Source: Escherichia phage alpha3. Taken from it: a stretch of 1,786 nucleotides of DNA. The notes under the pieces were generated by a model that was not told where the DNA came from, did no database searches, and was given only the letters and a program-made list of their open reading frames with translations. The position numbers and the translations under genes are program-made. The stretch is taken from the sequence record M25640.1, one strand, 5' to 3'. How positions within the stretch are numbered: the stretch's first letter is position 1; each line of letters starts with the position of its first letter. Of the stretch, positions 1 through 1,786 are shown in pieces.

Positions 1-72
1 GGTCGTGTGATTGGTACCATCGCTACGACTCAGGTTATTCATGAATACCAAGTCCTTCAGCCGCTTAAATAA
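1..72 (+). CDS. G: 3' end of major spike protein G (partial; start is upstream of the window)
   Basis: Frame 1 is open from nt 1 and reads GRVIGTIATTQVIHEYQVLQPLK, then TAA at 70-72. The ...QVI.E...LQPLK-stop ending matches the C-terminus of phiX174 G as I recall it (...NQVIKEIICLQPLK). The ORF lies directly upstream of H, as in the microvirus order F-G-H-A. Only 23 codons are visible. Confidence 0.75.
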   Translation, partial: GRVIGTIATTQVIHEYQVLQPLK

Positions 73-99
73 AAGGCTGCCGCACTCCCGGTTAGATGC

Positions 100-117
100 C
101 TGCCCAGTGTAGGGCAG
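100..117 (+). repeat. Inverted repeat / stem-loop: 6-bp stem CTGCCC (100-105) with GGGCAG (112-117), 6-nt loop AGTGTA
   Basis: Perfect Watson-Crick complementarity read directly from the sequence; all-GC-rich stem, no following U-tract. Confidence 0.6.
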
Positions 118-155
118 ACCGAGCCGTACGGAGATACCCGATAAACTAGGAACGT

Positions 156-176
156 GGAAGGCGTTAGCCGCCTTCC
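156..176 (+). repeat. Inverted repeat / stem-loop: 8-bp stem GGAAGGCG (156-163) with CGCCTTCC (169-176), 5-nt loop TTAGC
   Basis: Perfect 8-bp complementarity read directly from the sequence; followed by CTCCTG rather than a U-tract, so not a canonical intrinsic terminator. Confidence 0.6.
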
Positions 177-194
177 CTCCTGCTAAGCCCAAAA

Positions 195-199
195 AGGAG
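195..199 (+). promoter_or_regulatory. Shine-Dalgarno sequence (AGGAG) for gene H
   Basis: AGGAG at 195-199, 8 nt upstream of the H ATG at 208. Confidence 0.7.
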
Positions 200-207
200 T
201 TACAGCG

Positions 208-1200
208 ATGTTAGGTGCCGTTGTTGGTGGCATTGCCTCAGCCTTAGCTAGTGGTGCCGCTTCGAAATTATTTGGAGGCTCTCAGCGTGGAGTTTCTGTT
301 ATGCAGCAAGGTGCCGAGTCTGCCGGATTGACTAACGGCGGCGGCGCCATTTCTATGGATAATGACCAAGGTATTCAGTCTGCTATTCAAGGCTCGAATG
401 TTCCTCCTGCTGGTCAGCTTCCTGAGTCTCAGAACTCTGGTGTTATGGCTGATGCTGGTAACATGCTTCGTAATGCTGGAAAGTCTTTGCTTGACGGAAC
501 TATTCAGGCTGGTTCTGATAAAGTTAAGCAAGCACTTATTGATAAGTTGATTGGAGGTAATGATGCTAAAGACCGAGGAAAGGCAACCCGCGATTACTTG
601 GCTGCGGCCTTCCCTGAGCTCAACCCATGGGAACGTGCTGGAGCTGGTGCTTCCACTGCCGGGTTAGAATCTTCTGCTCAGAATCAGCAGAAAGAGATGC
701 TGAAGATGCAATTGGATAATCAGAAAGATATTGCAAAAATGCAGATGGATAACAATTTGCAGATTGCTGGTATTCAGTCTGCCACTTCTCGTCAAAATAC
801 GAAGGATTCTGTTTATGCCCAGAATGAGATGCTTCAGTATAATCAACGTGAGTCGCAGGCACGCGTTGCGTCTATCCTCGCCAACACTGACCTCACGACT
901 AAACAGGCTACCCATGAAATCATGAGGATGGCCCTTACCCGTGCTCAGGAGACTGGTCAGCATTTGACTAACTCTCAGATTATGGCTTTGGAGAAAAAGG
1001 TCTATGCAGAAATTGGAAAAATTCATCAAGATACTCAAAACTCTCGCTATGGTAGCTCTCAAGTTACTGCCGCTGCGAAAGATGTTACGAATATGATTAC
1101 CGATGCCGCTTCAGGTGCTTCTGATTGGGTTTCTCAGCAGTGGAATTCGTTCTTTAAGGATGGTAAGTCCAACGGTATTTCCCTTAATACCAGAAAATAA
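208..1200 (+). CDS. H: Minor spike / DNA pilot protein H (complete, 330 aa)
   Basis: ATG at 208 with SD 8 nt upstream, TAA at 1198-1200. The translation is collinear with phiX174 H as I recall it: Gly-rich hydrophobic N-terminus MxGAxxGGIASALAxGAxSKLFGG, then AIQGSNVP, TRDYLAAAFPELNxWERAGA, KMQLDNQK, IAGIQSATSRQNTKDxVYAQNEML, ARVASI, QNxRYGSS and C-terminal FxKDGKxxGIxxNxxRK. Similar length (330 vs 328 aa). Follows G as expected. Confidence 0.95.
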   Translation: MLGAVVGGIASALASGAASKLFGGSQRGVSVMQQGAESAGLTNGGGAISMDNDQGIQSAIQGSNVPPAGQLPESQNSGVMADAGNMLRNAGKSLLDGTIQAGSDKVKQALIDKLIGGNDAKDRGKATRDYLAAAFPELNPWERAGAGASTAGLESSAQNQQKEMLKMQLDNQKDIAKMQMDNNLQIAGIQSATSRQNTKDSVYAQNEMLQYNQRESQARVASILANTDLTTKQATHEIMRMALTRAQETGQHLTNSQIMALEKKVYAEIGKIHQDTQNSRYGSSQVTAAAKDVTNMITDAASGASDWVSQQWNSFFKDGKSNGISLNTRK

Positions 1201-1203
1201 TTG

Positions 1204-1209
1204 TTGACA
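1204..1209 (+). promoter_or_regulatory. -35-like hexamer TTGACA just downstream of the H stop (positional counterpart of the phiX174 promoter upstream of gene A)
   Basis: Perfect TTGACA at 1204-1209, 4 nt after the H stop, where phiX174 also has TTGACA after H. No convincing -10 hexamer at 16-18 nt spacing (AGACTC/GACTCT region), so promoter activity is uncertain. Confidence 0.4.
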
Positions 1210-1226
1210 TTCCCTAAACCCTTATG

Positions 1227-1265
1227 AGACTCTTGCTTCAACGAAACGAAGTAGGAGTCTTTTTT
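1227..1265 (+). terminator. Rho-independent-terminator-like hairpin with U-tract; Shine-Dalgarno AGGAG (1253-1257) embedded in the 3' arm
   Basis: 13-bp stem (1227-1239 pairs with 1248-1260; 11 Watson-Crick plus 2 G-U pairs), 8-nt loop AACGAAAC, followed by TTTTT (1261-1265) and then ATG at 1266. Same layout as the phiX174 hairpin GCCTCCAAATCTTGGAGGCTTTTTTATG before gene A, as I recall it. Confidence 0.5.
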
Positions 1266-1409
1266 ATGAAACCAGCTCATCGCCTCTATCATCCTGTGCT
1301 TGGTTCTTGGTTGTTTAAGTGCCCCGTTTATGTTCGTTATGAGTCCCTTCATCACGGTCGCCTCATTAAGGTTCGTGCTGTTCGTGACCTTTCCCGCGTC
1401 AGCAGTTGA
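1266..1409 (+). CDS. Hypothetical small basic protein (47 aa), candidate leader ORF
   Basis: ATG at 1266 sits 8 nt after AGGAG (1253-1257) and directly after the U-tract, at the position equivalent to the phiX174 gene A start. It reads MKPAHRLYHPVLGSWLFKCPVYVRYESLHHGRLIKVRAVRDLSRVSS, then TGA at 1407-1409 (9 K/R, 4 H, 2 D/E). I recognise no homolog; expression is unproven. Confidence 0.35.
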   Translation: MKPAHRLYHPVLGSWLFKCPVYVRYESLHHGRLIKVRAVRDLSRVSS

Positions 1410-1633
1410 TTGCCAATCCTAAAAATTGCTTTGACGTTGTCATTGCTGAGATTGACGTTACTCACCTTTCTGTCACTTGGTATGATTTTGAAGCTGAAGA
1501 GTATGCTGAGTGTGATTCCGGCACTATGGAGCTTGTTGTTTCTCAGGTAAATTCTGGCGAGGTTATTCGCTCATCTGAAGACCTGTTTGTTGATGTTGAT
1601 GATATGGAATGGCCTTATGAAATTGCGGAGTAA
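1406..1633 (+). CDS. Hypothetical highly acidic protein (75 aa, TTG start)
   Basis: ORF from the six-frame track. The TTG start at 1406 overlaps the TGA stop of the preceding ORF (TTGA); no independent SD. 19 Asp/Glu versus 2 Lys/Arg. TAA at 1631-1633. An alternative internal ATG at 1526 has no SD. Coding status uncertain. Confidence 0.3.
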   Translation: MIANPKNCFDVVIAEIDVTHLSVTWYDFEAEEYAECDSGTMELVVSQVNSGEVIRSSEDLFVDVDDMEWPYEIAE

Positions 1634-1636
1634 GTC

Positions 1637-1726
1637 ATGGAAACTGTTATCGGAAAATTTATTGCTCTGGCTATTGTTGCTCTTATGCTGTATGGAATTG
1701 CCTGTTTGATTCGGAGGTTTCCGTGA
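1637..1726 (+). CDS. Hypothetical 29-aa hydrophobic single-helix membrane peptide
   Basis: ATG at 1637 is preceded by GGAG (1627-1630) at 6-nt spacing. It reads METVIGKFIALAIVALMLYGIACLIRRFP, then TGA at 1724-1726. An 18-residue uninterrupted hydrophobic core is flanked by K7 and R26-R27. Too short for the supplied ORF track; found by manual reading. Confidence 0.4.
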   Translation: METVIGKFIALAIVALMLYGIACLIRRFP

Positions 1727-1786
1727 AATATTTTAGTTTGGTAGATGAACATTATGCTTACTGCCCTGATACAAGGATTTTGCACA
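1723..1786 (+). CDS. 5' end of next gene (partial; GTG start), possibly replication initiation protein A
   Basis: GTG at 1723 is preceded by a strong SD, GGAGG (1713-1717), at 5-nt spacing and overlaps the upstream stop (GTGA). It is open to the window end: (M)KYFSLVDEHYAYCPDTRILH. There is weak resemblance to the phiX174 A N-terminus MVRSYYPSECHADYFDFERIE (shared H, Y and RI at equivalent spacing), and gene A is expected after H. Only 21 codons are visible. Confidence 0.4.
   Translation, partial: MKYFSLVDEHYAYCPDTRILH

Follow-up and report, generated by a model that had tools for sequence, protein, structure and literature searches.

The DNA studied here is a 1,786-nt stretch of bacteriophage alpha3 (genus Alphatrevirus), referred to throughout as the window, which contains gene H and continues into the interval between H and gene A. 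It is 100% identical to the alpha3 records X60322/NC_001330 and crosses the origin of the circular record, window 1–1200 corresponding to genome 4888–6087 and window 1201–1786 to genome 1–586. The reference record carries no annotation within genome 1–758, and gene A is annotated from genome 759, equivalent to window position 1959 and past the window end. The alpha3 H–A interval thus measures 758 nt, against 63 nt in phiX174 (H stop at 3917, A start at 3981), a spacer for which a preliminary description of the window had given about that length. Comparing this interval across relatives, we found that in Alphatrevirus it in all likelihood holds a cassette of small, conserved protein-coding genes that is absent from phiX174. 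The genes are named here X (122 codons), Y (29 codons) and Z (58 codons), overlapped by W, a candidate gene in the +1 frame (Table 1).

Table 1. Features of the window (window coordinates; predicted genes and signals are named as in the text)
Feature	Position	Strand	Remarks
Gene H (minor spike / DNA pilot protein), 330 codons	208..1200	+	annotated at genome 5095–6087; upstream boundary of the spacer
TTGACA hexamer	1204..1209	+	3 nt past the H stop, at the position of the phiX174 pA −35; without a good −10
Terminator-like hairpin	1226..1265	+	from a terminator scan; 14 pairs in 1226–1261, then a T-run to 1265
Gene X, 122 codons in the true sequence	1266..1633	+	split here into ORF1 (1266–1409) and ORF2 (1406–1633)
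C-run with one C missing in X60322	1393..1395	+	CCC here; CCCC or CTCC in relatives
Candidate gene W	1593..1709	+	+1 frame relative to X and Y; listed ORF 1587–1709; stop TGA 1707–1709
Gene Y, 29 codons	1637..1726	+	single hydrophobic helix followed by RRFP; GGAG 6 nt upstream; GTGA into Z
Gene Z, 58 codons, the first 21 in the window	1723..1786	+	genome 523–699; runs past the window end

Conserved small genes between H and A

The preliminary description had read the interval as a chain of three short, linked open reading frames (ORFs) on the viral strand. These ORFs lie where they were placed, at 1266–1409, 1406–1633 (TTG start, 75 aa) and 1637–1726 (ATG, 29 aa), the first, of 47 codons, being the ATG-1266 version of a longer listed ORF (1224–1409). 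Their joins can be read in the sequence as TTGA at 1406–1409, TAA at 1631–1633 followed by a 3-nt gap, and GTGA at 1723–1726, and Shine-Dalgarno motifs are present at 1627–1630 (GGAG, 6 nt before ATG 1637) and at 1713–1717 (GGAGG, before GTG 1723). The tiling also exceeds chance, as had been supposed: among 1,000 dinucleotide-preserving shuffles of window 1201–1786, a single one gave a chain at least as long as the observed 503 nt, and five gave ORFs of the observed length. After correction of the missing base described below, the chain grows to 677 nt, a length reached by none of 1,000 shuffles.

To follow these frames among relatives, we used the H–A intervals of 14 other GenBank alphatreviruses and of 15 further distinct genomes from public metagenomes. 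Indels and single bases were compared in an alignment of the 15 GenBank genomes, substitution events were taken as Fitch counts on a neighbour-joining tree of 30 genomes, and ratios of non-synonymous to synonymous substitution (dN/dS) are pooled Nei–Gojobori estimates. The comparison, which the preliminary description had itself proposed, showed the frames to be kept, with a bias towards synonymous sites in X (dN/dS 0.20 in frame, 1.2–1.8 off frame) and in Z (0.08–0.18 in frame), off-frame values for the two genes being about 1–4. In residues 1–65 of X the in-frame value falls to 0.065, against 1.8–4.1 off frame, and the variable alignment columns of X are distributed over codon positions 1/2/3 as 55/42/106 (chi-square p = 4.5e-8). 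Inside the ORFs, the only indels among the GenBank genomes are one deletion each in X60322 and St-1, both in X, and length changes at the Y/Z junction (+2 in ID32, +3 in NC29), whereas the non-coding flanks of the cassette contain several. Third-position T amounts to 52–57% in X, Y and Z, like that of alpha3 F, H and D, and the GC content of the cassette is 41.9% compared to 45.2% for the genome. On these comparative grounds X (122 aa) and Z (58 aa) are shown to behave as real genes under purifying selection, confirming the claim that conserved coding sequence lies on the viral strand outside the canonical annotations of alpha3, St-1, phiK and WA13.

Gene X and a missing base in the alpha3 record

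Every other genome in the alignment has one base more at the C-run within ORF1 than X60322. With the additional base, the frame reads D-L-S-P-R-Q-Q-L-I-A-N, the TTG of the TTGA overlap becomes an internal leucine codon, and a single ORF runs from ATG 1266 to TAA 1631–1633. This intact X is found in the alpha3 sequence DQ085810.2 and in 28 of the 29 other relatives, all but St-1; it has 122 codons in DQ085810.2 and 12 other GenBank genomes, and is intact in all 15 metagenomic genomes at 120–154 codons (120, 129 and 154 in a few lineages). The TTGA stop/start overlap is not kept among relatives, being seen only in X60322/NC_001330, and is an artefact, because X60322 lacks one C at 1393–1395. The alignment therefore shows ORF1 and ORF2, described previously as separate genes of 47 and 75 codons, to be the two halves of one predicted 122-residue protein, which the 1992 alpha3 record divides by leaving out one base. 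In two contigs (L018 3001–3465 and L019 689–1153), X carries a 34-residue N-terminal extension (154 aa).

The same record has G at 1535 and 1538, where DQ085810.2 and close relatives have C, a difference of V-V against L-L in X; both are probably additional errors of the 1992 alpha3 sequence. A missing homopolymer base together with G/C miscalls is the usual pattern of gel-reading errors, and we consider it very probable that the missing C reflects a sequencing error rather than a true mutation of the stock. St-1 (GQ149088; L007 at about 229–230) has a 1-nt deletion of its own, 37 nt past the C-run, which breaks X into pieces of 108 and 68 codons and could be either an error of sequencing or a genuine loss during the long passage of a laboratory strain.

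Structure prediction agrees with a single protein: AlphaFold2, run on 18 X sequences, gave a compact alpha/beta fold extending across the ORF1/ORF2 boundary, with a predicted local distance difference test score (pLDDT) of 90.5 and a predicted template-modelling (pTM) score of 0.81, and the independently computed BFVD model of X from the relative Lilleven superposes at a template-modelling (TM) score of 0.97. The two halves differ in charge, the N half being basic (isoelectric point 10.4) and the C half acidic (4.05). A role of the acidic half as an anti-restriction DNA mimic in K-12/B hosts was considered and dropped for want of support; alpha3 has no EcoKI site and one EcoBI site, and Lilleven has neither, counts that are uninformative at 6 kb. 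X and Y share a frame, separated by TAA and one further codon (window 1631–1639), and in contig L031 the TAA of X abuts the ATG of Y directly. Were this stop read through, X would acquire the membrane helix of Y; no sign of such read-through was seen.

Genes Y and Z

Gene Y would encode a hydrophobic peptide (grand average of hydropathy 1.53) and is preceded by a strong, conserved GGAG-N6-ATG. Its ORF, its ATG and its overlap into the downstream frame, read as GTGA or ATGA, are kept in all genomes examined except ID32, which has a 1-nt gap, so that this part of the preliminary description was borne out. The frame of Y is maintained up to the Z start through two different versions of its C-terminus. 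The dN/dS of Y is 0.41, and that of the +1 frame on the same bases is 0.12.

The GTG at 1723, previously taken as the start of gene A after a spacer of about 520 nt, is the predicted start of the third small gene, Z; gene A begins 236 nt further on. As expected of translational coupling between Y and Z, the 4-nt overlap is conserved and GGAGG or AGGA stands 5–7 nt upstream of the Z start, inside Y. The AlphaFold model of Z is moderate (pLDDT 73.8), with strands followed by one helix, and no paralogy between X and Z was detectable.

Contig L032 (298–534) encodes P0022, a 78-residue in-frame Y–Z fusion. Being found on a single 761-nt contig with a coverage of 2.2, the fusion is probably an assembly or sequencing artefact and was set aside as evidence of joint action of the two proteins. 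Z also contains a 41-codon ORF in its +1 frame (MNIML..., MNIMLTALIQGFC..., window 1745–1786 onward, genome 545–670), which is open in all genomes and has its ATG in nearly all. We rejected it as a second overlapping gene, since Z-synonymous changes occur at a ratio of 0.68 whether or not they alter this frame, and it appears to be a compositional by-product.

A second reading frame over gene Y

The low dN/dS of the +1 frame over Y corresponds to the ORF of the candidate gene W, which spans the end of X and most of Y. The frame, of 36–38 codons, stays open throughout the genomes examined, the divergent contig L031 among them. Possible in-frame starts are the ATGs at 1593, 1599 and 1617, of which the last is invariant and the first two are each lost in some genomes. 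The product of W, if translated, would be a hydrophobic peptide of 30–38 residues with the sequence ...MKLRSKSWKLLSENLLLWLLLLLCCMELPV.

Synonymous change is depressed precisely where W overlaps its neighbours. Four-fold degenerate sites have undergone 4.0 events per site in X and Z (n=73) compared to 0.85 in Y (n=13; Mann-Whitney p = 3.7e-5). In sliding windows, synonymous events relative to the neutral expectation stay at about 1 along X, fall to 0.31 at 1595–1624 and to 0.18–0.28 through 1637–1696, reach 0.41 in the last Y window (1682–1711) and return to near 1 in Z. The depression is thereby confined to window 1595–1707 and coincides with the W ORF, as would be expected of overprinting.

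We then classed every possible single-base change in 1640–1706 by its effect in Y and in W. Changes silent in Y that alter W were observed 18 times against 77 expected (ratio 0.23, P = 6e-16), and those silent in W that alter Y, 32 times against 81 (ratio 0.40, P = 5.5e-10). Within the latter class, changes radical in Y were the more depleted (8 observed, 39.7 expected, ratio 0.20, P = 1e-9) compared to conservative ones (24 observed, 40.6 expected, ratio 0.59). Changes silent in both frames occurred as expected (8 against 8.8, ratio 0.91), a neutral control comprising three sites only. The same +1 frame further upstream in X gave ratios of 0.97–1.05, and the 41-codon ORF in Z showed no frame-specific signal, with 0.68 in both classes.

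The two frames differ in codon usage, third-position T being 18% in the W frame and 52% in Y. Following the codon-usage logic for overprinted frames that has been applied to phiX174 E and K (PMC8227390), this low value in W suggests that Y is the older frame and that W was overprinted on it. Taken together, dual coding of Y and W seems the best explanation of the constraint over 67–110 nt, and we regard it as likely, though well short of certain.

Alternative explanations of the interval

The most serious alternative is that the constraint over 1595–1707 reflects a cis-acting nucleic-acid element and that X, Y and Z are the only genes, with a protein-binding site on single-stranded DNA or mRNA, a replication or 'reduction-effect' sequence, or translation control as candidates. 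A four- to five-fold drop in synonymous change would fit such an element, as would the lack in W of a good Shine-Dalgarno sequence and of a universally conserved upstream start, and there is a precedent in the phiX174 fragment across the H–A spacer that acts on superinfecting phage and is known as the 'reduction sequence' (PMC8310164). However, the remaining variation is strictly three-base periodic and falls on W third positions, changes silent in both frames proceed at the neutral rate, the boundaries of the constraint match the W ATGs and stop, and the W frame stays open even in L031. The stretch under Y, moreover, is predicted to be less structured than its shuffles, at z = +1.8 for RNA and DNA alike, and matches no Rfam family, and a structured RNA or DNA element at this place was rejected on these grounds. 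We judge a cis-acting element to be unlikely, at perhaps one chance in a few.

Less probable still is that W alone is translated in 1637–1709, with Y kept open by composition and at most delivering ribosomes to the Z start. The lower dN/dS of the W frame (0.12 compared to 0.41) and the concentration of change at W position 3, as in an ordinary gene, speak for this possibility, which we nevertheless consider improbable: the changes silent in W and radical in Y are depleted five-fold, the Shine-Dalgarno sequence of Y is strong and conserved, its frame is kept through both C-terminal versions up to the Z start, and genome-like codon usage is a property of Y, not of W.

The layout first proposed, three linked short genes of 47, 75 and 29 codons with TTGA, a 3-nt gap and GTGA as their joins and gene A immediately downstream, is very improbable. 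Its ORFs and joins do exist in X60322, where the chain is longer than in 999 of 1,000 shuffles, and the tight packing it emphasised stands. Against it, the TTGA join is restricted to X60322/NC_001330, the resequenced alpha3 genome and 28 of 29 relatives reading through it; one compact, confidently predicted fold spans the join; and GTG 1723 opens a 58-codon ORF, with gene A following from genome 759. The division into ORF1 and ORF2 accordingly falls away, and with a fourth frame, W, in view, so does a plain succession of three genes.

That the spacer is simply a non-coding leader of gene A mRNA whose ORFs are chance products of T-rich sequence, as the empty reference annotations and the conservation of frames such as the 41-codon ORF in Z without selection might suggest, can be practically dismissed given the third-position bias of X (p = 4.5e-8), dN/dS values of 0.07–0.2 in frame against at least 1 out of frame, indels that occur in the flanks and not inside the ORFs, the confident fold of X and the rarity of such ORF lengths among shuffles (5/1000).

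Signals around the cassette and proposed expression

Of the 26 distinct sequences listed, 23 have the TTGACA hexamer just downstream of H and three have TTGACT in its place; a sigma-70 scan found no full site upstream of X. The hairpin that follows has a predicted folding energy of −20.1 kcal/mol (z = −6.05) and a T-run of about six, and the Shine-Dalgarno sequence of X (AGGAG, 1253–1257) lies in its 3' arm. The stem does not vary at its base, and most changes higher up in it are compatible with pairing. Many relatives have an interrupted T-run (TCTTTGCTT, TCTCTATC). In the L018/L019 lineage the loop is enlarged and the T-run lost, with the stem base GAGACTC/GGAGTCTC kept.

A second copy of this layout stands after Z, outside the window, and comprises TTGACA, 18 nt, TATATT, a hairpin, T5 and the ATG of gene A. 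The stop codon TGA of Z lies inside this −35 hexamer, the site has 11 of 12 matches (genome 697–760, L004), and the hairpin before A shows one compensatory UA/AU pair among relatives. The promoter and start of gene A are thereby shown, as predicted elements, to lie after Z. In the wild isolate NC35, a 29-nt deletion (L005 690–730, equivalent to genome 704–732) removes the TATATT −10 and the 5' arm of the hairpin before A, and a scan found no sigma-70-like site anywhere in the NC35 spacer. Because of this loss, gene A of NC35 would have to be reached from upstream, through the cassette.

The corresponding pA/T_H element of phiX174 stops only about 70% of incoming transcription (10.1101/2020.03.05.979765). 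We propose that X, Y, W and Z would similarly be transcribed from the upstream late promoters by read-through of a leaky post-H hairpin terminator; the degenerate T-runs of relatives and the NC35 deletion fit such read-through expression. An additional weak transcription start within the first hairpin is possible given the conserved −35 there, and phiX174 has an annotated transcription start inside the hairpin of its H–A spacer. Translation of X may be limited by the burial of its Shine-Dalgarno sequence in the 3' arm, as for gene A in phiX174, and Y would be translated from its own Shine-Dalgarno sequence.

Elsewhere in the window, the G–H intergenic region (73–207) contains two strong GC-rich hairpins (GCCTGCCCAGTGTAGGGCAGAC, GGAAGGCGTTAGCCGCCTTCC) and has a folding energy of −48.3 kcal/mol (z = −2.1); the primase-dependent complementary-strand origin of alpha3, St-1 and phiK has been mapped to this region.

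Relatives of the cassette proteins

Homologues of the cassette proteins appear confined to alphatrevirus-type genomes. Word-indexed searches of 5.8 billion proteins with X and Z returned only proteins of microvirus contigs of about 6 kb, and tblastn with the same proteins over 50,697 phage records returned only the 26 alphatrevirus records. Searches of Pfam and PHROGs gave no significant match for X, Y or Z, and none of the three showed sequence or profile similarity to the eleven Bullavirinae proteins (A, A*, B, C, D, E, F, G, H, J and K). On the same contigs, the neighbouring genes match Phage_F, Phage_G, Microvir_H, Phage_GPA, Phage_C and gpD, with X, Y and Z matching nothing. Fold searches of PDB and BFVD likewise found no match outside alphatrevirus-type contigs, so that X is, as modelled, a protein without a known fold relative.

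An exhaustive search of 1.84 billion representatives with a hidden Markov model profile of X recovered one distant relative, P0049 (129 aa, 74 bits), from the region 820–1475 of L031, an alphatrevirus-type contig with the context H-X-Y-Z-A. In this contig X is highly diverged; no more than four positions distinguish its Z from that of alpha3, and the differences in Y are mainly C-terminal. Such a pattern points to either mosaic evolution or a rapid divergence restricted to X.

The gene order H-X-(Y)-Z-A is also given by gene callers in independent metagenomic contigs. In the GenBank record of Lilleven (MK629527), X, Y and Z correspond to QBZ71502–QBZ71504, each labelled 'hypothetical protein', and MG945254 covers this stretch with related but differently bounded features labelled 'similar to hypothetical protein'. 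A full-text literature search found no paper on genes of the alpha3 H–A region, although earlier genome papers may mention ORFs there. W is accordingly put forward as a new candidate overlapping gene, X, Y and Z being already in GenBank as unstudied hypothetical proteins.

Discussion

The Bullavirinae have been credited with eleven genes, a set whose completeness was tested in phiX174 (PMC6883844). If the alpha3 clade does carry three or four further conserved genes, as interpreted here, a spacer regarded as non-coding for thirty years in a model phage family would contain a gene module, the reference annotation would be incomplete for alpha3, St-1, phiK, WA13 and their relatives, and NC_001330 would contain a frameshift error inside one gene. 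Work on experimental evolution, hybrids and genome design with these phages treats about 12% of the genome as spacer. The kinds of element involved are familiar from phages: small accessory genes set between core ones, translationally coupled genes, and hydrophobic genes that are overprinted. To the last of these the cassette would add a new and compact case, open to testing by two point mutations.

As to what the cassette may do, it presumably stands outside the core microvirus cycle, because phiX174 lacks it and X and Z are unmatched outside Alphatrevirus. Its products would be one or two single-helix membrane peptides and two small soluble proteins of a non-core, accessory kind. These might act on the infected cell, for instance on its envelope, on replication or on superinfection, and would not be building blocks of the virion. 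The phiX174 gene K is non-essential, and we liken the cassette to K in status. Alpha3-type phages grow on K-12 and B strains, on which phiX174 and G4 are not known to grow, and the cassette would offer a concrete place to look for this difference in host range. The fuller proposal, of four extra proteins in which dual-coded membrane peptides (Y and W), read in two frames from the same 70 nt, and a new-fold protein (X) belong to a genus-specific host-interaction module, is one that we hold in even balance; that this accessory module adjusts the infected cell, perhaps in superinfection or host range, is more tentative and at present a doubtful guess.

Several observations weigh against our interpretation. 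X, Y, Z and W are predicted from sequences and models, and no homology or fold match hints at a function. Two laboratory-strain records, alpha3 X60322 and St-1, have frameshifts in X, and if these are real mutations X would be dispensable in culture. The promoter scan detected no sigma-70 promoter upstream of X, and the predicted post-H terminator would stop much of the incoming transcription. Taken alone, the dN/dS of Y (0.41) is unimpressive. For W, the ribosome-binding site is weak (GGA, 8 nt before ATG 1617), the ATGs at 1593 and 1599 are not universally conserved, and no W-like protein came from any gene caller in the protein collection searched. The doubly silent control is small, and the event counts depend on a simple tree and on parsimony, which the recombination known among these phages could distort.

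One of the known systems close to the cassette is the annotation of Lilleven itself, which differs from the present account in giving no analysis or function for QBZ71502–QBZ71504 and in not calling W, and which has not been carried over to alpha3, St-1, phiK, WA13 or other reference records. The cassette also resembles phage morons in being a block of small genes between core genes, H and A, that are adjacent (63 nt) in phiX174, and in having no homologues among core functions and a distribution limited to one lineage. It differs from them in that its composition and third positions match the genome, with no sign of recent import, and in that a promoter and terminator of its own could not be shown and no donor was found.

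W would share with phiX174 K a hydrophobic product, a +1 frame and a position that bridges two genes, the end of X and the start of Y in place of the A/C junction, and shares with both E and K a suppressed synonymous change in the host frame and an atypical codon usage (PMC8227390). In contrast to E and K, to which it has no sequence similarity, W is a predicted gene, belongs to a genus-specific cassette and not to the core genome, and overlaps a frame, Y, that would itself encode a hydrophobic peptide.

Finally, the signals flanking the cassette reproduce the phiX174 pA/T_H arrangement, in which TTGACA after the H stop is followed some 16–20 nt later by a GC hairpin containing the Shine-Dalgarno sequence, a T-run and an ATG. 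Alpha3 has this layout twice, before X and before A, the copy before A having a strong −10, whereas the first copy lacks a recognisable −10 and many relatives have a degenerate T-run there. The ATG that follows the T-run belongs to gene A in phiX174, whereas in alpha3 the first copy feeds X.

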